From Spirochaetia bacterium (GTDB taxonomy: Bacteria; Spirochaetota; Spirochaetia; CADAEX01), in NCBI GenBank assembly GCA_017554185.1, contig JAFZIU010000106.1:4338-68337 (forward strand): a DNA stretch of 64,000 bases. The letters are read 5' to 3'. Position 1 is the stretch's first letter. Every line of letters starts with the position of its first letter. The notes under the pieces were generated by a model that did not search any database, was not told the DNA's origin, and was given only the letters and a program-made list of their open reading frames with translations. Of this stretch, positions 1,807 through 60,583 are shown piece after piece. A program made the position numbers and the translations under genes.

Positions 1807-2910
1807 ATGAAGCTTGAGAATCATATAGATTCTGAAATATTACAAAAGCGTATGTATCCCCGGGTAGAAGACATCCGGGGATGCTTTTTTCGCGATCTTA
1901 CCGCCATAATCCATTCCTATCCCTACAGGCGGCTTAAGCATAAGACACAGGTCTTCTTTGCTCCCCACAACGACCATATCTGCACCCGTATGGAGCATGT
2001 GATGCATGTGGCCACAATCTCTGTGACAATCTGCAAGGCTCTTGGGCTGGACACCGACCTTGCCTGGGCAATAAGCGTGGGGCACGACCTTGGACACACC
2101 CCCTTCGGTCACACTGGCGAAAGCATTCTTTCAAAGTATCTTGAGAAGCAGGGCGGTTTCTGCCACGAGATCTATTCCCTCCGGGTGGTGGATCACCTGA
2201 TCAACGGCGGCAAGGGAATCAACCTGACCTATGCAGTGCGGGACGGCATAATAAACCACTGCGGCGAGAAGTTCGAGCAGTATCTGGAGCCGGCTGCTGT
2301 GCCATGTGTGCCGGAAGAGGTGAAGAGCCGATCTTTCTATCCATGTACATGGGAAGGAATTGCTGTGCGTATGTCCGACAAGATTGCATACCTGGGGCGG
2401 GACCTTGAGGATGCGATGCGGATCGGTCTGGTGAAAGAGGAAGAGATTCCCGACATTGTCATAAGCACTCTTGGCGACGATAACAGCAGTATGATAAACA
2501 CTATGGTATGTGATGCGGTGAATAACGCTGAGAAGCTGGGCAGGATAGGCTTCTCCGACCCGGTTTACGAGGCTATGGTGTGCCTTAAGAAGTTCAACTA
2601 CGAGCATATCTACCAGAGCCAGGAGCTTATAAAGTATGACCAGCGTATCCATCGGCTTATCGATACACTGTGGGAATACCTTGGCGAGATATTTGACCGC
2701 TATGGCTTTGACTGCAGTCGGTATGAGGGGGAGCAGACCAATGTGGCTGACGAGTTTGCAGGGTATCTTAAGAAGATGGAGGCCTTCTACAGGACCGAGG
2801 AGGATTTCTCCTATGTCATCCCGGATTACATAGCAGGAATGACCGATAAGTTCGCCATAGATTCTGCCACCGAACTGGTCTCTCCAAGGCAGTTCAGCTA
2901 CAATATTTGA
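1807..2910 (+). CDS. HD-domain phosphohydrolase, dGTP triphosphohydrolase-like
   Basis: HD motif HVMHVATISVTICKALGLD...VGHDLGHTPFGH; size and motifs of short dGTPase-like family. Confidence 0.65.
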   Translation: MKLENHIDSEILQKRMYPRVEDIRGCFFRDLTAIIHSYPYRRLKHKTQVFFAPHNDHICTRMEHVMHVATISVTICKALGLDTDLAWAISVGHDLGHTPFGHTGESILSKYLEKQGGFCHEIYSLRVVDHLINGGKGINLTYAVRDGIINHCGEKFEQYLEPAAVPCVPEEVKSRSFYPCTWEGIAVRMSDKIAYLGRDLEDAMRIGLVKEEEIPDIVISTLGDDNSSMINTMVCDAVNNAEKLGRIGFSDPVYEAMVCLKKFNYEHIYQSQELIKYDQRIHRLIDTLWEYLGEIFDRYGFDCSRYEGEQTNVADEFAGYLKKMEAFYRTEEDFSYVIPDYIAGMTDKFAIDSATELVSPRQFSYNI

Positions 2911-2947
2911 TGTTGACAGGAATATTTCCTTACCTTATAATGAAATT

Positions 2948-3457
2948 ATGGGATTATTACCAGAAATAAAGAACAGATTCAGCGTGAGGCATTTTAAGAA
3001 TGTGCCTTTAGAGCCGGAAAAGCTAAGCCGCATACTCGAGGCTGGACGGCTGGCTCCTTCTGCTAAGAACCGCCAGCCATGGCGTTTTCTGGTTGTTGAT
3101 GACCCTGCAATAAAGAGCAGAATCGCAAGTGCCGCTTATGGCCAGCAGCATGTGCTGGATGCAGGTGCTGTAATTGTGGCCTGTTCCACCAATGTTGAGT
3201 ATGTAATGCCCAACGGCCAGCCGTCCTACCCAATCGACATAACTTTCGCAGTCTCATTCATGATGCTGCAGGCAGAGAAAGAGGGATACGGCAGCTGCAT
3301 TGTCACCATGTTCAACGAATCTTCAGTGCACGATATCCTTACTCTTCCATATTCCATGCGGGTTGTCATGATGCTGGCAGTAGGAGAGAAGGACGAGGAG
3401 CAGTCCCACACCGACCGTAAGCCCACATCCCAGGTCATCTCCTTCAATCACTGGTGA
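2948..3457 (+). CDS. nitroreductase-family NAD(P)H oxidoreductase
   Basis: 169 aa; RHFKNVPLEPEKLSRILEAGRLAPSAKNRQPWRFLVV matches nitroreductase N-terminal FMN-binding signature. Confidence 0.65.
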   Translation: MGLLPEIKNRFSVRHFKNVPLEPEKLSRILEAGRLAPSAKNRQPWRFLVVDDPAIKSRIASAAYGQQHVLDAGAVIVACSTNVEYVMPNGQPSYPIDITFAVSFMMLQAEKEGYGSCIVTMFNESSVHDILTLPYSMRVVMMLAVGEKDEEQSHTDRKPTSQVISFNHW

Positions 3458-3460
3458 TTA

Positions 3461-4315
3461 TCAGTCCAAGTAAACAGTTTTTGTAGTATCTTTGATCTCA
3501 AAGCCCAGACTTTTATACAGCTTTATCGCATTCTTGTTTCCAGAGCGGACAAAGAGGGAAGGAATCTTGTGCTCCTCCTCTATGATGAACCTGCACAGTG
3601 CAGCCACTGTGTTGAGTGCATAACCTTGGTTCCTGAAGCGTGGTACCGTGAAGACTCCTCCCACCTGTATATGGTCAAAGCCTCTGGCATTAGTGTTTGC
3701 CTTTGATACATACCTGAAGCCCCGCCTTGCATAGAAGCAGAACTCATTGGTCAGGATGGACCTGAGCCACCGGAAGGTCTCCATTGTATCCTGAGAATCG
3801 GGGTTCAGCAGCACCTCCTGCCTTTCGTAGGTTTTCTGGAGAGGGAAGAGCGGAAGAAGCTGCCGTGTTGAGCCCCTTAGTATCCGCATCTTCTGCGGGG
3901 GTGTCATCTGCGGCATCTTGAATCTGTCTGGCTCCAGCTCCATTATATAGTGCTCCACAACCTGCTGACGCTGTCCGCAGGAGAACTTATCCAGGAACAT
4001 ATCCACCGCCTCTGTTTTTCCAGACACTGAAGTAGGGAGAAATACTGTGTTTCCAGCCAGGGCCGACACATAGTTCACATCCTCCTGACGGAAGAAAAAC
4101 TGGTTGCCCATGACAGGCATTACCCTGCCGTAGTCGGTGAAGAATAGGGCTGCATCAAGAGTATTGCCGTAAGTGTGTGCAATGATAGGCTTTGAACTCT
4201 TTCTGGTCCCAGAGATCATAGGAACTGTATCAATGCAGCTTATCTCCTGGGGCTTCACCAGTGCAGTAAGCTTTTCTATGAAATCTTCAACCCTGTCTAT
4301 TTTAACCCAGCTCAT
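3461..4315 (-). CDS. GNAT-family N-acetyltransferase with N-terminal unknown domain
   Basis: C-terminal ~100 aa show GNAT motifs (QVGGVFTVPRFRNQGYALNTV...NKNAIKLYKSLGFE); 4-nt overlap with upstream GH3 gene suggests operon. Confidence 0.5.
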   Translation of the reverse strand: MSWVKIDRVEDFIEKLTALVKPQEISCIDTVPMISGTRKSSKPIIAHTYGNTLDAALFFTDYGRVMPVMGNQFFFRQEDVNYVSALAGNTVFLPTSVSGKTEAVDMFLDKFSCGQRQQVVEHYIMELEPDRFKMPQMTPPQKMRILRGSTRQLLPLFPLQKTYERQEVLLNPDSQDTMETFRWLRSILTNEFCFYARRGFRYVSKANTNARGFDHIQVGGVFTVPRFRNQGYALNTVAALCRFIIEEEHKIPSLFVRSGNKNAIKLYKSLGFEIKDTTKTVYLD

Positions 4316-52695: not shown

Positions 52696-52768
52696 GCCGC
52701 TGTAGCTCAGTTGGTAGAGCAATAGACTGAAAATCTATGTGTCATCAGTTCGATTCTGATCGGTGGCA
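52696..52768 (+). tRNA. tRNA-Phe (anticodon GAA)
   Basis: GCCGCTGTAGCTCAGTTGGTAGAGCAATAGACTGAAAATCTATGTGTCATCAGTTCGATTCTGATCGGTGGCA: cloverleaf with D-loop AGCTCAGTTGGTAGAGC, anticodon loop CTGAAAA, T-loop GTTCGATTC; upstream TTGACA-17-TATAAA promoter at 52655-52683. Confidence 0.9.
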
Positions 52769-52838: not shown

Positions 52839-53459
52839 TTGATGAAAAACTTGAACAAGAAATTAATTCTTCTGCTTGCATTGCTTGTTTTAATATCCGG
52901 CTCCCTCTTTGCCGCATCTGATGATGACGATGAAGACACCTATGTAGAAAGCTTCAGCCTGGGCGACCAGATGTTCTTTATAAATGGAGGAGTCTTTATT
53001 CCTCTGTTCTTCTTTGACAGGAGTTTAGATGTCATGGAAACCAACCTGACCTTGGGAGGAACCGGTTCTCTCTGCTGGCAGGTATTCCTGACCAATCATC
53101 TCTCGCTTGGCGGCGAGCTTGGAGGTATGTTTGCCTTAAGCCCCAACAGGCGTGTTCTTTATATGATACCCCTTACAGTCAAGGCAACCTACTGGTTCAG
53201 ATTCTATCCCTTTGAGATACCAATATCCCTGGGGCTGGGCGGTAACCTCTCTATCCTTGAGGAAGCGGCTCATATCGATTTCATAGCCAAGCCTGCTGTA
53301 GGCTTCTATTGGAACTTCAACGAGGAGTGGGCTTTCGGAGCAAATGTCACCTATTGGTTTGTACCACAGATATATTCTGGAAGCGGAAAAGTTCAAAGCA
53401 GCCACAGCATGTTCGGAAACTTCATGGATGTGTCTTTATCTGTGCTGTTCAGGTTCTAG
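52839..53459 (+). CDS. small outer-membrane beta-barrel protein (OmpW/OmpA-barrel-like)
   Basis: Signal peptide MMKNLNKKLILLLALLVLISGSLFA, acidic DDDDED stretch, alternating beta-strands, C-terminal ...LFRF. Confidence 0.5.
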   Translation: MMKNLNKKLILLLALLVLISGSLFAASDDDDEDTYVESFSLGDQMFFINGGVFIPLFFFDRSLDVMETNLTLGGTGSLCWQVFLTNHLSLGGELGGMFALSPNRRVLYMIPLTVKATYWFRFYPFEIPISLGLGGNLSILEEAAHIDFIAKPAVGFYWNFNEEWAFGANVTYWFVPQIYSGSGKVQSSHSMFGNFMDVSLSVLFRF

Positions 53460-54657: not shown

Positions 54658-56286
54658 ATGAAAAAGATTCCAGTTCTGACACTTAAGATTGTAACTCTTA
54701 TAGCAGTAGCCAGCTTATTACTGAGCACGGCTCTGTTCTTTATCGGTTATACCCAGTTTGAGCGGCAGTTTGACCGGCAGTACAAGTCCCATATTCTCTC
54801 TATAGCCCATACTGCAAGGGAATTTTTAAATGCCGACTTGTTCGAGGAATATCTTAAGACCAACAAACCCGACGGCTCCTGGTATGCAGTCCATGATGTA
54901 CTGCAGAAGATGGTAAACAAGTTCAATCTGGACCTGATGTATGTCTCCTGTGTAGAGCCCCCGGAATTCACCAAGATTCATTATATTTATAACCCAGTAC
55001 GTCCCGCTGGCCGGTTTAAAGAATACCCTATGGGATACACCGAGAATTATGTGCAGAAAAAATATAACGAGTCGGCTCACCGTATTTTTGAGAAAGGGGA
55101 GGAGCTGGTACGTCATACCCCGGATTCAAAAAGCGGTCCCCATATAACAGCCAATATTCCGGTGCGCAACAGTATGGGGGCTGTAGTGGCCATGCTGGGT
55201 GTCAGGTTGCCTACCCAAGAATTTGTGGATGTCCAGAAAACTTATATCTACTGGACACTTTTGACCCAAGGTATTCTTCTGCTTATCTACATCATTTTCT
55301 TTGTATACTATTATCGTAAGCAGTTTATAAACCCGATGCTGGCTATAACCAAGGAGGCCCAGCGGTTTGCCTCCGACTCAAGCAGGATAACTGATATAAC
55401 TAAGACAGTTAAGAACAGGGACGAGATAGGTACCCTTGCCCAGTCTGTTAATAAAATGGAAAAGGATATCCAGGATTATATTACAAACCTTACCAAAGTC
55501 ACCTCCGAAAAGGAGCGGATGAACACAGAACTTAACATTGCCACCGGAATACAGGCGGGGCTTCTGCGAAAGGATTTCATAGAGGAGAATACTGTCTCGA
55601 TCAGGGCCAGCATGACCCCTGCCAAGGAGGTAGGCGGCGACTTTTATGACTTTTCTATGCTGGACGACCACCACGCTCTGGCCATTGTGGCCGATGTATC
55701 GGGCAAAGGGGTGCCAGCCGCCCTGTTCATGGCCATGGGCACCACACTGCTCCGGGATCACATAGCCCTTATGCTCCGCAGCAGCACATCTCTGGTAAGC
55801 GAAGTTGGGCTGGTGAACAACATACTTTGCCGTAACAACGAAGGCGGGCTTTTTATAACAGCGTGGATAGGAATTCTGAATACCCAGACAGGGCGGCTGG
55901 CCTACATTGATGCAGGCCACAACCCACCTATGATCAAGCTTGGGGCCGGCGATTTCGCATTCATTCCAAGGGCAAAGAAAGGGCTTCCGCTGGCATCTAT
56001 GGAGGACTTCCCCTATAAACTCAATGAGATTTTCCTCAAGCCGGGAGACAGGCTCTTCCTATACACAGATGGTGTAACCGAGGCTCAGAACAAAGAGCAG
56101 AAACTGTTTGGCGAAGATCAGCTGCTTCAGTATGCCGTATCACATCAGGCCGAGACCCAGGCTCAGTTCATGGAGAATCTTATTAAAGCCCTGGCCGATT
56201 TCCAGAGCGGCTGCGACCAGTTCGACGACATAACTATGTTGATGATGGACTACAAGGCAGAAGCCGGCTGTTCCGAAGATAAATAA
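54658..56286 (+). CDS. membrane sensor PP2C-type serine phosphatase (periplasmic domain-HAMP-SpoIIE/PP2C)
   Basis: N-terminal TM, ~160 aa extracytoplasmic domain, second TM, HAMP (MLAITKEAQRFASD...), C-terminal PP2C/SpoIIE domain (GGDFYDF...DVSGKG...YTDGVTEA). Confidence 0.8.
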   Translation: MKKIPVLTLKIVTLIAVASLLLSTALFFIGYTQFERQFDRQYKSHILSIAHTAREFLNADLFEEYLKTNKPDGSWYAVHDVLQKMVNKFNLDLMYVSCVEPPEFTKIHYIYNPVRPAGRFKEYPMGYTENYVQKKYNESAHRIFEKGEELVRHTPDSKSGPHITANIPVRNSMGAVVAMLGVRLPTQEFVDVQKTYIYWTLLTQGILLLIYIIFFVYYYRKQFINPMLAITKEAQRFASDSSRITDITKTVKNRDEIGTLAQSVNKMEKDIQDYITNLTKVTSEKERMNTELNIATGIQAGLLRKDFIEENTVSIRASMTPAKEVGGDFYDFSMLDDHHALAIVADVSGKGVPAALFMAMGTTLLRDHIALMLRSSTSLVSEVGLVNNILCRNNEGGLFITAWIGILNTQTGRLAYIDAGHNPPMIKLGAGDFAFIPRAKKGLPLASMEDFPYKLNEIFLKPGDRLFLYTDGVTEAQNKEQKLFGEDQLLQYAVSHQAETQAQFMENLIKALADFQSGCDQFDDITMLMMDYKAEAGCSEDK

Positions 56287-57430
56287 ACAGATACATCAGC
56301 AGGATAGGGTAGAATGCGCTGCAGCACCCCTGTACTCCAAGAGCCAGCAGGACTATGGCGGCAGCACACAGCATAGCCTGAATGCGGGAGAACCACATCA
56401 GAAGCTGCTTCTTGCCAAATATCTTGGACACAATGAATATGATCAGCAGAGGATTGCACCACAGTATGTTCAGGTTTTTGTCCCCCGCATAATGGTCAGA
56501 GATAAACCACCAGTAGCAGATCATCATCCCGACCACCCAAGGGGCGGCCACAAGTATGCATTCAAACACATCCAAAAGCTTTTCATTGCCTGGCAGCAGC
56601 GAAAGCAGAATAAGGAACAACAGCCCTATGGCAAATACCATGAACGGCTGGGTAAAAACCCCTGGGCGCCCTGGGTGCTCCACATGGGCGTTATGTATCA
56701 TCTGGACTTTATCCACCAGCTTACGGCCGTCGGGAAGGTAGGCACTGTCGAACAACCGTTCTGTCAGTTCCGGAAGGAAAAAGGCATGCTCCGGCTTGAC
56801 CTTCTCGTCGGTGTTAAGTCCCAGCGCTATCTGTATCCCCAGGTCGTACCACGGCACTGTATCTAAATAATCCCTTATCCAGTCACGGTAAGTCCGGCTG
56901 GTTATCTCTTTCCATATATGCTCATCATACTTCAGCGGTCCCACACATTTCTCAAGCACAGCCACCATCTGCGAAGAACAGTTGGCCGCAAGGAAGTCGT
57001 ATTTGTAGTATTTGTTCTCTTCCTTGGAATTCCATTCCAAGAATTCGTATATTTTGTCTATTTCCGCCTGGTTCAGGTTCAGCCGCTGCCGGGACACATA
57101 CCGTTTATGATTAACATATTTTTGTAATTCTTTGGAATAATCTACCCTGAACAGGAAAAAGTCCAGCTTGCCTTTAAGGAAATTACGCACAAAGCCGGGC
57201 TTCTCAAAGTTGAATGTACCATAGTTGTATAAGGTGAACATAGGGTCGTTATTTGAATCCTCCGGGTTGTTCCGCAGGATCAAAAAACAGCTGTGGCCAT
57301 AGTGGGCATATATTTTCATTCCCGGACCTACTGTTATTATGTTCACTTCCTCTTTATATCTAGCAAAGATGGGATAGTCACAGATAGAGACAATAATAGA
57401 GATAATAATTAAAGCTAAGAGCTTTCTCAT
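56234..57430 (-). CDS. membrane protein of unknown function (N-terminal extracytoplasmic domain + C-terminal polytopic region)
   Basis: Start preferred at ATG 57430 (MRKLLALIIISIIVSI...) rather than TTG 57487 which would sit inside the divergent promoter; 5 C-terminal TM helices; 53-nt convergent overlap with PP2C gene. Confidence 0.4.
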   Translation of the reverse strand: MRKLLALIIISIIVSICDYPIFARYKEEVNIITVGPGMKIYAHYGHSCFLILRNNPEDSNNDPMFTLYNYGTFNFEKPGFVRNFLKGKLDFFLFRVDYSKELQKYVNHKRYVSRQRLNLNQAEIDKIYEFLEWNSKEENKYYKYDFLAANCSSQMVAVLEKCVGPLKYDEHIWKEITSRTYRDWIRDYLDTVPWYDLGIQIALGLNTDEKVKPEHAFFLPELTERLFDSAYLPDGRKLVDKVQMIHNAHVEHPGRPGVFTQPFMVFAIGLLFLILLSLLPGNEKLLDVFECILVAAPWVVGMMICYWWFISDHYAGDKNLNILWCNPLLIIFIVSKIFGKKQLLMWFSRIQAMLCAAAIVLLALGVQGCCSAFYPILLMYLFIYLRNSRLLPCSPSST

Positions 57431-57480
57431 CAGTTTTATACTAAGGCAGGTCAGGCCATTCTGCAAGTGCTTAATTATTC

Positions 57481-57509
57481 TTGACAATTTGGTTGGGGGG
57501 GGGTAGACT
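57481..57509 (+). promoter_or_regulatory. sigma70-like promoter with G9 homopolymer in 17-bp spacer (candidate phase-variable)
   Basis: TTGACA (57481-86), 17-nt spacer atttggttGGGGGGGGG (G-run 57495-57503), -10 TAGACT (57504-09), then GGGAGGAG RBS and ATG 57529. Confidence 0.6.
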
Positions 57510-57528
57510 GTAAAAAATGGGAGGAGAT

Positions 57529-57912
57529 ATGAAATCTAATAAAGCTCTTAGATTTATAGTACTGCTTATAGCAGTTATGGCATTCTTTATGGTATATGCT
57601 TCCACTGGAGATTCATCTGGTACATCAAAGGAAAAAACAGGTGTAGACACTAGCTTTAAGGGAACATATGTGTATACTTTCCAGGGCAACAACAAAGACA
57701 TTTTTGAATTTTATGAAAACGGAAATATGAAGGTTTATGAAAAAATGGGGGATAATCCTAAAGAATGGCAAGAAGATGGCAAGTATACTCTTTCTGCTGA
57801 TGGCAAAAAAATCATTTGTGATGGTGAAGTGCACGGAATCTCTTATTTTATGCTCAGCGATGACAAATCATATATGACTGCTAGTAACGGATGGCTTTTG
57901 TATAAAGAGTAA
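57529..57912 (+). CDS. small secreted protein of unknown function
   Basis: 127 aa; signal peptide MKSNKALRFIVLLIAVMAFFMVYAS; GGGAGGAG RBS. Confidence 0.5.
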   Translation: MKSNKALRFIVLLIAVMAFFMVYASTGDSSGTSKEKTGVDTSFKGTYVYTFQGNNKDIFEFYENGNMKVYEKMGDNPKEWQEDGKYTLSADGKKIICDGEVHGISYFMLSDDKSYMTASNGWLLYKE

Positions 57913-57932
57913 ATTTGAGTTAAATAATTCAA

Positions 57933-57959
57933 GGGCTGCACTCAAGTGCAGCCTTTTTC
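57933..57959 (+). terminator. rho-independent terminator
   Basis: GGCTGCAC-tcaa-GTGCAGCC then T5. Confidence 0.75.
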
Positions 57960-58033
57960 ATTACCTTGACAATTGCATATATTGGCTTTAATATTTTAAT
58001 GTATAAAAATATAGTTATTTCTGGGAGAGAACC

Positions 58034-58843
58034 ATGAAAAAGTTGTTTTTAACCGTTGCAATAGTGCTCATGACAACAGTTGCTTTTGCCGATGACGCTG
58101 AGGCCAAGAAGCTTCTGGATGCCTATAAAATGGTTGAGGTTGAGGCCGAGAACTATACATTTGCAGTAGGTGTCACCGAAGTGACCCAGCAGCTCTACGA
58201 GGCAGTCTTCGAGGAGAATATCTTCAAGTTCAAGTTCAAGCTGCTGCCGGCAGAAAGCATGAGCTTCTACGATGCCATCTATTTCTGTAATTATCTGAGC
58301 AAGTTAGCCGGTTATGATCCTGTATATGCAATTGATGAAGAGTTTGACATTGACAACTGGGATTATGCTCCGCACACAGGACAGAAGATAGAATTGGGTC
58401 ATTTAACATGGGACCAGACAAAGAACGGATACAGGCTTCCGATGATTGCAGAATGGAAGTATTGCGCTGACGGGGATGAGGAATACCTTTACAGCGGAAG
58501 CGACAAGCTGGACACTGTTGGCTGGTACGAAAAGAACAGCGATTTCAAGACCCACAATGTGGGAAAGAAGAAACCGAACGGCTTCGGCCTTTACGATATG
58601 AGCGGCAATGTATGGGAATGGTGCTGGGACCAGAATCCTAAGTTCACCCACGATGTCCGCTATTACTGCGGCGGCTCATACAAGACCACCGAGAAACAGT
58701 GTGCAACCAAGGTCACATCCTCCGGCAAGCCCGAGAAAGGTTCTGTCAATGTAGGAATCCGCCTGTTCCGCTCAACTGTTCCTCCAGAGCCTGAAAAGCC
58801 TGTGGAAAAGCCAAAGCAGAAGCCAAAGATGACTGTCAACTGA
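58034..58843 (+). CDS. secreted FGE-sulfatase (formylglycine-generating enzyme-like) domain protein
   Basis: Signal peptide MKKLFLTVAIVLMTTVAFA; FGE-like motifs GYRLPMIAEWKYCA and GNVWEWCWD; Pro/Lys-rich C-terminus; upstream TTGACA-17-TAATAT promoter (57965-57993). Confidence 0.6.
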   Translation: MKKLFLTVAIVLMTTVAFADDAEAKKLLDAYKMVEVEAENYTFAVGVTEVTQQLYEAVFEENIFKFKFKLLPAESMSFYDAIYFCNYLSKLAGYDPVYAIDEEFDIDNWDYAPHTGQKIELGHLTWDQTKNGYRLPMIAEWKYCADGDEEYLYSGSDKLDTVGWYEKNSDFKTHNVGKKKPNGFGLYDMSGNVWEWCWDQNPKFTHDVRYYCGGSYKTTEKQCATKVTSSGKPEKGSVNVGIRLFRSTVPPEPEKPVEKPKQKPKMTVN

Positions 58844-58844
58844 T

Positions 58845-59234
58845 ATGAAGAGATTTGCACTGCTGTTTATAGTTGCCATTGCTCTTTGCATATTATTCGG
58901 ATGTGACGGCTCATCAGATGGAAGCAGTTTGAAAGTAGGTGCTTTTGAAGGTGGTTATTATCACACCACCAGCAGCGACGGTTTCAGACTCGATTTTAAA
59001 GATGGTAAGTGCGCAATTTATTATTCACCTGACTTGACTACCGAGCGTTGTATAGGAGAAAGTCCTTTCTCTGAGTCTACCGACCCAAATGGAAGAAAAA
59101 TGCTTACCCTTGATAATAGTATTGAAGGTCAAAGTTATTTTATTGTTATCAACGATGGTAATAATCTGAAGAATAATAAGGACTGGGAATATACCAAGTT
59201 CCCATCTGAAGGCTTTAATTGGCTTAATCCCTAA
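58845..59234 (+). CDS. small lipoprotein, unknown function
   Basis: Lipobox ILFGCDGSSDGS; 129 aa. Confidence 0.45.
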   Translation: MKRFALLFIVAIALCILFGCDGSSDGSSLKVGAFEGGYYHTTSSDGFRLDFKDGKCAIYYSPDLTTERCIGESPFSESTDPNGRKMLTLDNSIEGQSYFIVINDGNNLKNNKDWEYTKFPSEGFNWLNP

Positions 59235-60583
59235 AGATAAACGATGAAAATATAGAGTGTGCAGATGCCCATTGCCAGGATCGAGGCAGGGGCAAGCCAC
59301 TTGCAGTACCGTCCCCAGCTTACCGGATGACCAGATTTTGCACATATTGATGTCCCCACCACATTTGCCGATGCTCCGATAGGGGTGGCGCATCCGCCTA
59401 CGTCGGTACCCATTGAAAGAGTCCATGCCAGGGTGTGCATGCTGACCCCGGTGGTGGCTGCCAGGGATTCTATTATAGGTATCATGGTGGCAGTGAAAGG
59501 GATGTTGTCCACAAATGCACTGGCAATGCCCGATACCCACATTACAATGCCGATCATCAGGTAAGGGTTGCCGCCGCTTATTGCCTTGATTCCCCTGGCT
59601 GCTATTCCCAGTACGCCGGTAAGCTCAAGACCGCTTATAACCACGAAAAGCCCTGTGAAGAACAGCAGGGTCTTGTAGTCTACCCGCTTTAAAATAAAGA
59701 AAATATATCTTGGGGCAGCCAGGAAAGTTATGACTGACATGATCACCCCGATGGTTGGCACGGTGAGCCCGGTCTGAGCATGGGTCACTAAAAGCACTAC
59801 GGCACATATGAATGTGATTATGCTGAGCACAAACTCTCTGAACGAGGTCAGGACTGCCACAGGACGTGGGAACTTTCTCGGGTCTATAGATGAGGTCCTG
59901 ACATTAAGCTCCTTGCGGAATGCAAAATAGAAGAATACAACAGCTGCTATAAGCGACAGCAGGGCCATGGTTCCTGTGTTGCGCAGGAAGTCCCCGAATG
60001 TGTAGCCCAGAGAAGTTCCAATTATGATGTTAGGAGGATCTCCGCACATGGTAGCACTCCCTCCGATGCTGGCGCAGAAAATCTCAGGCAGGATCATGGG
60101 GATGGGGTTGAATCCAAGACGGTTGGCCAGTTCTACAGTAATGGCCGCCAGAAACAATATTACAGTTATACTGTCTATGAACATGGAAAGGATAGCCGAC
60201 AGAAGCATGAAGGAGATGAAAATGGGAATGACTCTGTAGTGCACTATCTTTGCAATCCACATGCATAGCCAGGTGAAGAAGCCGGTGCGTGCCATGCCCT
60301 CGACCATAATCATCATTCCCGCGATGAATATGATAGTGGCCCAGTTTACGCCGCTGTTTATGGATGCCTCTACATTCTTTGCATACCAGAAGCTTGTGGC
60401 TGTCATTGAATTAAGGCTTAGTGAAGTCCATACTGCATCCATGCTGTGCATGCAGATGCCGAATACAATGATCAGGGTTGCTGCCGCCCCGGTCAGGGTA
60501 ATATAATGACGCTCAAACTTTTCGCTTATTATAAATGCGAACATGATGACAAAAATTAAGACAGCCAATATTTGTGCCAACAT
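59231..60583 (-). CDS. ArsB/NhaD-superfamily anion/citrate-type permease
   Basis: 450 aa, ~12 TM, duplicated-halves topology typical of ArsB/NhaD/CitMHS permeases. Confidence 0.55.
   Translation of the reverse strand: MLAQILAVLIFVIMFAFIISEKFERHYITLTGAAATLIIVFGICMHSMDAVWTSLSLNSMTATSFWYAKNVEASINSGVNWATIIFIAGMMIMVEGMARTGFFTWLCMWIAKIVHYRVIPIFISFMLLSAILSMFIDSITVILFLAAITVELANRLGFNPIPMILPEIFCASIGGSATMCGDPPNIIIGTSLGYTFGDFLRNTGTMALLSLIAAVVFFYFAFRKELNVRTSSIDPRKFPRPVAVLTSFREFVLSIITFICAVVLLVTHAQTGLTVPTIGVIMSVITFLAAPRYIFFILKRVDYKTLLFFTGLFVVISGLELTGVLGIAARGIKAISGGNPYLMIGIVMWVSGIASAFVDNIPFTATMIPIIESLAATTGVSMHTLAWTLSMGTDVGGCATPIGASANVVGTSICAKSGHPVSWGRYCKWLAPASILAMGICTLYIFIVYL

Follow-up and report, generated by a model that had tools for sequence, protein, structure and literature searches.

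A poly-G promoter spacer as a candidate slipped-strand switch for a small signal-peptide protein in uncultured ruminant-gut spirochaetes

Promoter-repeat switches are known from several bacteria, including the TA repeats of Haemophilus influenzae hifA/hifB, the poly-A tract of Mycoplasma hyorhinis vlp, and the poly-C tract of Bordetella pertussis fim. These repeats lie within or beside the promoter spacers of surface-structure genes, and that of hif also sits in a divergent intergenic region. To our knowledge, nearly all documented cases of repeat-driven phase variation come from host-adapted pathogens. Among genes with a poly-G tract between the -35 and -10 hexamers are porA of Neisseria meningitidis, for which a spacing of 17 nt is optimal as outlined in PMC7864442, and tp0126 of Treponema pallidum, an OmpW homologue whose transcription is optimal with a 17-nt spacer (PMC7864442). 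The latter study reports that 76% of 17 tested, not previously studied T. pallidum poly-G tracts of at least 8 nt vary in length. Poly-G tracts of 7-11 residues also lie beside the promoters of T. pallidum tprE/G/J and tprL, where they vary within isolates and shorter tracts are permissive (PMC7864442); for tprL, a porA-like mechanism was explicitly ruled out by the authors (PMC7864442). Among the treponemes compared in PMC8049484, Treponema ruminis, a bovine gut commensal, has the fewest homopolymeric tracts.

We identified a poly-G tract of the spacer-embedded kind in a 64,000-nt stretch of a spirochaete genome assembled from a metagenome (contig JAFZIU010000106.1), which we call the window and whose positions are used throughout. 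The adenylosuccinate lyase encoded in the window is at most 69% identical to that of any named relative, all of which are Spirochaeta or Spirochaetales MAGs, and loci related to the one described here came from yak-reticulum and water-buffalo-rumen MAGs as well as ruminant gut metagenome assemblies. On these sequence grounds the host is an uncultured ruminant-gut spirochaete and not demonstrably a Treponema.

The tract lies in the 98-nt intergenic region, conserved overall, between two divergent genes. The initial annotation had placed a TTGACA and a TAGACT around a 17-nt spacer ending in nine G residues, with a reverse-strand gene at 56234-57430 on one side and a forward-strand gene at 57529-57912 on the other. 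When the sequence was re-read, the positions of both hexamers, the spacer, and the G9 run proved exact, and the gene layout was as described. Positions 57480-57531 read cTTGACA-ATTTGGTT-GGGGGGGGG-TAGACT-gtaaaaaatgggaggagat-ATG, the whole stretch also being given as cTTGACAatttggttGGGGGGGGGTAGACTgtaaaaaatgggaggagatATG. The elements of the locus are as follows:

57481 to 57486, forward strand: -35 hexamer TTGACA, a perfect consensus, invariant in 20 of 20 related contigs
57487 to 57503, forward strand: 17-nt spacer between TTGACA and TAGACT, made up of ATTTGGTT and G9
57487 to 57494, forward strand: non-G half of the spacer, ATTTGGTT, 8 nt here and 9 nt in other lineages, variable at 6 of 9 columns
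57495 to 57503, forward strand: G9 homopolymer, the element that varies in length; relatives all have uninterrupted G here, 8, 9, 10, or 11 long
57504 to 57509, forward strand: -10 hexamer TAGACT, which keeps consensus T1, A2, and T6 and is invariant in all relatives
57510 to 57528, forward strand: short leader, with an A6 run (57512-57517) and a Shine-Dalgarno GGAGG (57520-57524)
57529, forward strand: start codon ATG of the regulated gene, with TAGACT ending 19 nt upstream
57529 to 57912, forward strand: regulated gene, an open reading frame for a 127-aa protein with an N-terminal signal peptide lacking a lipobox Cys
57933 to 57958, forward strand: intrinsic terminator, a 9-bp GC-rich stem followed by U5
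57966 to 57994, forward strand: promoter of an operon encoding an FGE-sulfatase-domain lipoprotein, TTGACA, 17 nt, TAATAT, identified from a consensus scan and from relatives
52696 to 52768: tRNA-Phe, with a canonical promoter TTGACA-17-TATAAA upstream and a T9 terminator

The optimal spacer of sigma-70 promoters is 17 +/- 1 bp. A consensus scan of positions 56000-59500 returned the poly-G promoter as the joint best sigma-70-like match (10/12, spacer 17), tied with the FGE-gene promoter. Since the tRNA-Phe and FGE promoters share this design, the organism evidently relies on sigma-70-type promoters with 17-nt spacers. The hexamers that frame the G tract are the best consensus matches; they do not vary among the lineages and are suitably positioned ahead of a ribosome-binding site and an ATG. 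Transcription would begin near 57516-57517, judging from the distance to the -10 hexamer, and the leader, GTAAAAAATGGGAGGAGAT, is nearly invariant among relatives. The A6 run near this presumed start is itself polymorphic in length (A5 in contig L003, A7 in L012-L015), and L016 and L018 carry A6 with an extra T in the same leader run, downstream of the -10. An in-frame ATG at 57517 was considered as the start codon; most relatives have one more A ahead of the main ATG (...GATAATG), which shifts the 57517 codon out of frame, and we therefore take 57529 as the real start.

The G9 run is a real outlier in this genome, in which G/C homopolymers are otherwise strongly avoided. No other run of G or C in the 64 kb (49% G+C) exceeds 6, the next longest being two C6 runs, and the counts of G/C runs of lengths 1-6 are 16363, 5519, 1019, 223, 44, and 2. 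Extrapolating this run-length decay gives an expectation of about 0.03 runs of at least 9, compared with 0.34 under a zero-order base-composition model. The G9 run and the G8-G11 runs of its relatives reach the length at which homopolymers become prone to slippage (about 8 or more G/C). No other tandem repeats of note were found near the locus. A G-quadruplex was also considered and set aside on reasoning alone, as one G run cannot give four separated G blocks.

We propose, with a probability of roughly three in four, that this is a promoter-spacer homopolymer contingency locus operating as a slipped-strand poly-G switch. Slipped-strand mispairing at replication would cause the tract to gain or lose G residues, and the G count would set both the distance and the rotation between the -35 and -10 hexamers, and with them promoter strength. 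A spacer of 17-18 bp would be near-optimal and leave the gene on, while one of 20 bp would presumably be too long for RNA polymerase to contact both hexamers, turning expression off or very low. If slippage occurs at high frequency within populations, as we suppose, on/off expression together with allelic diversity of the product could allow a population to escape targeting of an envelope or secreted protein. Phage, host antibody, and predators are candidate targeting agents, speculatively.

Relatives of the locus were gathered by looking up exact protein matches, scanning GTDB, and scanning metagenomes for the pattern, which yielded 20 contigs beyond the window; once contigs at least 99% identical were merged, these and the window represent about 13 lineages. 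The independence of the contigs is uncertain, because some assemblies may be re-assemblies of the same samples. The GTDB genome scan with the divergent Lnb-like protein gave two loci only, which suggests that the clade is poorly represented among GTDB species representatives. A strict scan for the promoter, allowing a variable gap, returned no match among JGI metagenome contigs, and a looser pattern returned a single contig, L022. One relative, L018 (JAFZYX010000235.1), is a 1.5 kb contig that carries the spirochaete locus and was binned in the Ruminococcus sp. MAG RGIG8224, a placement that is almost certainly a binning error.

All 20 related contigs carry TTGACA-N8/9-Gn-TAGACT-GTAAAAAATGGGAGGA followed by a start codon. 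The architecture is kept even in L020, whose flanks are 76% identical to the window, and where the mature protein has been replaced; in L019 and L022 the upstream flank has no detectable similarity to the window, yet the tract and promoter are retained. From lineage to lineage, the hexamers, leader, and ribosome-binding site show little or no change. The non-G half of the spacer occurs as ATTTGGTT, ATTCGGCAC/T, AGTTCGAGA, or AGTTCGCTT, and with 6 of its 9 columns variable the spacer sequence as such is unconstrained. By comparison, none of the 8 shared G columns is substituted (0/8 vs 6/9, Fisher p = 0.007). Save for one N8/N9 difference, length variation is confined to the G tract, and is given here as non-G half, tract, and total spacer:

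Window, L001 to L005, and L009: N8, G9, spacer 17
L006 and L007: N8, G9, spacer 17; 96% identical to the window
L008: N8, G10, spacer 18; 97.6% identical to the window
L010: N9, G11, spacer 20
L011: N9, G9, spacer 18; 99.1% identical to L010, with the same protein
L017: N9, G9, spacer 18
L012: N9, G11, spacer 20
L013 and L015: N9, G9, spacer 18
L014: N9, G9, spacer 18
L016 and L018: N9, G8, spacer 17
L019: N9, G8, spacer 17
L022: N9, G11, spacer 20; 97% identical to L019
L020: N9, G11, spacer 20; the relative with 76% identical flanks

By lineage (about 13), the tract is G8 in 2, G9 in 6, G10 in 1, and G11 in 4, and the spacer measures 17 nt in 4, 18 in 5, and 20 in 4. The initial annotation had suggested looking for orthologous loci that differ in tract length, and such loci exist over the range G8-G11, including between strains that are 97-99% identical: L010 has G11 and L011 G9 (99.1% identity), L019 has G8 and L022 G11 (97%), and L007 has G9 and L008 G10 (98.8%).

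The adjacent FGE promoter serves as an internal control. It had been put forward from the start as a fixed-state comparator free of a G tract, and it behaves as one everywhere: its spacer is 17 nt in 17 of the 17 related loci that contain it, though the spacer sequence changes. Because this spacer is fixed on the same contigs, general indel noise and assembly sloppiness can be ruled out as the source of the variation. All comparison sequences are short-read metagenome assemblies or MAGs, every tract length is an assembly consensus, and homopolymers are error-prone, all of which would favour reading the length differences as sequencing or assembly errors. We regard that as very improbable, since the differences are mostly of 2-3 bases at the consensus level, lengths recur in separate assemblies (G8 in L016 and L018; G9 in L013, L014, and L015), and other features of these contigs, the FGE spacer among them, are free of length noise. 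The two promoters also share a CTTGACAATT context, as had been noted initially. The sharing is real, but a role as a shared regulatory motif was rejected because the window contains no excess of the 10-mer (5 matches allowing one mismatch vs 5.2 expected).

If the length differences are genuine, the spacer could nonetheless be an ordinary fixed one that is prone to indels, with slow neutral or slightly deleterious length polymorphism rather than a selected and quickly reversible switch. Consistent with this, 6 of the 13 lineages have G9 as their consensus. So does every contig that matches the window at 99.9% or better; the five nearest of these (99.9-100%) are joined by the 96% identical L006/L007 pair in having G9, so the tract is not wildly unstable at the consensus level. 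A neutral tract, however, should decay by substitution, whereas this one is uninterrupted in all lineages while the adjoining bases vary. Moreover, G11, with its 20-bp and predicted near-dead promoter, occurs in four backgrounds with an intact gene and ribosome-binding site, strains 99% identical lie two G residues apart, and the neighbouring FGE promoter never changes spacer length. We therefore consider a merely indel-prone spacer unlikely. Together, the invariant surroundings, the pure G columns, and the fixed FGE spacer suggest that the tract is a selected mutable element and not an accident. A counterpoint to reading it as a switch is that promoter output may be much the same at spacers of 17 and 18.

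The distribution of lengths has a further property. Spacers of 16 or 19 are absent from the approximately 13 lineages, a small sample, and a simple random walk in single steps would not predict this absence. Rather than spreading smoothly, the lengths look two-state, with G11 found in four separate backgrounds.

The gene on the other side of the intergenic region bears on what else the tract might do. The Lnb family, to which its product is related, has been characterised in Bacteroides. The relevant features are:

56234 to 57430, reverse strand: divergent Lnb-like membrane protein of 398 aa, with PF13387 Lnb_N (1.4e-17) and PF25221 5TMH_Lnb (4.3e-13)
57442 to 57470, reverse strand: putative promoter of the Lnb-like gene, TTGCAG, 17 nt, TAGTAT, read by eye

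Both Pfam domains score above their gathering thresholds, while against the NCBIfam equivalog model NF051878 the protein reaches 158 bits, below the cut-off of 550; we accordingly call it Lnb-like and not a proven Lnb lipoprotein N-acyltransferase equivalog. The gene probably has its own promoter, TTGCAG-17-TAGTAT. On this side CTGCAA is invariant, and the -10 is TAGTAT, TACAAT, or TACTAT depending on the lineage, with TAnnAT kept. The consensus promoter scan did not list this pair for the Lnb side and proposed TTGTCA-18-CAGAAT instead. As the C tract, seen from this strand, lies upstream of the putative Lnb -35, it should not alter the spacing of the Lnb promoter. The transcript of this Lnb-like gene, encoded here in a spirochaete, appears near-leaderless: the putative -10 TAGTAT lies 11 nt before the ATG and a Shine-Dalgarno is absent. 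At 64-66% identity, the N-terminal coding region (within 57360-57439) is the least conserved part of the gene; a 12-nt tandem repeat lies within it at 57384-57409.

The tract could be mainly a regulator-binding or structural element, providing extended -10-like G residues or an upstream element for the Lnb-like gene, with length variation incidental. Its purity is conserved, it abuts the -10 so that G residues always occupy -13 to -15, and it lies about 60-70 nt upstream of the Lnb start codon in the conserved 98-nt intergenic region; there is also a precedent in the CRP homologue that acts with poly-G length at the T. pallidum tprE, G, and J promoters (PMC7864442). A binding site, however, should keep its length, and this tract changes by up to 3 bp amid invariant surroundings. 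It also lies outside the spacer of the putative Lnb promoter, and it persists with its promoter in L019 and L022, where the upstream flank differs. A primarily regulator-binding or structural role is, in our view, improbable, more so than an indel-prone fixed spacer.

Returning to a slippage-driven switch of the forward gene, its effect would be confined to one transcription unit. The terminator after the gene is strong (-19.8 kcal/mol for the 50-nt stretch, z = -5.2) and the next operon has its own promoter, indicating that the poly-G promoter controls a single gene. Switching at the translational level was considered from a 140-aa gene call in one relative (P0003; L012, 2388-2810), whose ATG arises from ...CAT+G and whose frame reads through the tract. 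This call is without a ribosome-binding site, its ATG is absent from the window (...GGTTG...), and at other tract lengths the frame is shifted or stopped; translational frameshifting from this ATG is a gene-calling artefact confined to one lineage. A spurious 68-aa open reading frame has similarly been called across the promoter in L013 (1100-1306), and tract length alters which spurious frames become annotated.

The regulated product is predicted to be a small signal-peptide protein with a lipocalin-like beta-barrel. A Pfam search of the 127-aa protein gave no match. The AlphaFold model (pLDDT 80) has a hydrophobic helix at residues 5-24, predicted to serve as a signal or anchor, and then a disordered linker followed by an 8-stranded beta-barrel. 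Foldseek matches in the PDB were weak (best E = 2.7e-3, TM 0.4-0.56), though the structures hit were consistently small lipoprotein barrels of lipocalin-like type, namely 3lhn, T. pallidum Tp17/TP0435, YedD, and a Bacteroides lipocalin. When 1.8 billion representatives were searched with a profile, a handful of small relatives were recovered along with repeats within a Lipocalin_4/DUF5640 protein; the profile reaches that protein, P0011, at E = 1e-8, and P0011 carries Lipocalin_4 at 3e-25. In the relatives P0007, P0008, and P0009 a lipobox Cys follows the same signal peptide.

The downstream operon and one more distant gene complete the neighbourhood:

58034 to 58843, forward strand: FGE-sulfatase-domain lipoprotein, in the downstream operon with its own promoter
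58845 to 59234, forward strand: 129-aa lipoprotein, beginning after a 1-nt gap behind the FGE gene and 27% identical to the regulated protein
52839 to 53459 (about), forward strand: TP_0126-family (OmpW-like) outer-membrane protein (PF27340), 4 kb upstream and following tRNA-Phe

In another contig (L021) the relatives P0008 and P0009 occupy the same position after FGE genes. Given this recurring position behind FGE genes, the small barrels may function together with the FGE-domain lipoprotein. In L012 the regulated gene and the FGE operon are separated by an inserted gene for a 409-aa AAA_14/DUF4143 ATPase (2856-4085), which lies on the opposite strand.

The mature domain of the regulated protein is strikingly exchangeable. 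The segment encoding it (57610 to 57927, forward strand) behaves as a replaceable allelic cassette in comparison with L013-L016, L018, L019, L020, and L022. BLASTN similarity to the type-B contigs stops at 57609 and resumes at 57928-57932, with nucleotide identity of 37-56% inside the segment vs 90-100% in the flanks, and the window and type-B proteins have the same signal peptide but only 45% identity over their whole length. The protein types found behind this promoter and signal peptide number at least four (P0001/2/3, P0005/6, P0007, and P0010). The flanks are themselves a mosaic of 79-85% and 98-100% identity blocks, which suggests recombination between strains. Signal-peptide proteins with a hypervariable mature domain are typical contingency genes.

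We tentatively extend the hypothesis, at somewhat less than even odds, to a contingency system of two layers in a lineage of commensal rumen spirochaetes. An expression head comprising the poly-G promoter, leader, and signal peptide would flip between two discrete states, on at 17-18 bp and off at 20 bp, while three to four or more unrelated-looking mature-domain cassettes would be exchanged behind it by recombination between strains. Such a system, if it exists, would suggest strong targeting of a small lipocalin-like envelope protein, whether by phage, host IgA, or protozoa, in a non-pathogen.

More generally, the locus offers a clean and comparatively well-supported case in uncultured ruminant-gut spirochaetes, recovered from metagenome assemblies alone, and the FGE promoter beside it supplies an internal control. 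It singles out a family of small, unannotated, hypervariable secreted proteins that are probably under strong diversifying pressure, and amplicons of the tract would offer a simple way to measure on/off population structure in rumen samples.

Set against the known promoter-repeat switches, the locus differs from hif in that the divergent hif promoters have overlapping spacers that both contain the repeat, whereas here the tract apparently lies in one of two. The precise counterparts are porA of N. meningitidis and tp0126 of T. pallidum. The comparison with the tpr genes drawn in the initial annotation is loose: at tprE/G/J and tprL the tract lies at or after the -10 near the transcription start, and hexamer spacing is unchanged (PMC7864442). 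In porA, spacer poly-G slippage grades transcription from high to none and the envelope product is antigenically variable, as outlined in PMC7864442 and known more generally, and it is in these features that the present locus is proposed to resemble it. The porA system differs in belonging to another phylum and a pathogen, and in encoding a porin with expression data, compared here with a small signal-peptide protein predicted to be lipocalin-like. With tp0126 the locus shares both the class Spirochaetia and a poly-G tract in the promoter spacer; the regulated gene is unrelated, the host here is a gut commensal rather than a pathogen, and the window's own TP_0126-family gene is without a G tract, no G/C run having been found near it in a run scan of the window. 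The mechanism is already known, and the poly-G locus adds a probable case of the porA/tp0126 kind, with modest added interest from its occurrence in an uncultured commensal rumen spirochaete and its coupling to allelic cassette diversity of the regulated protein.
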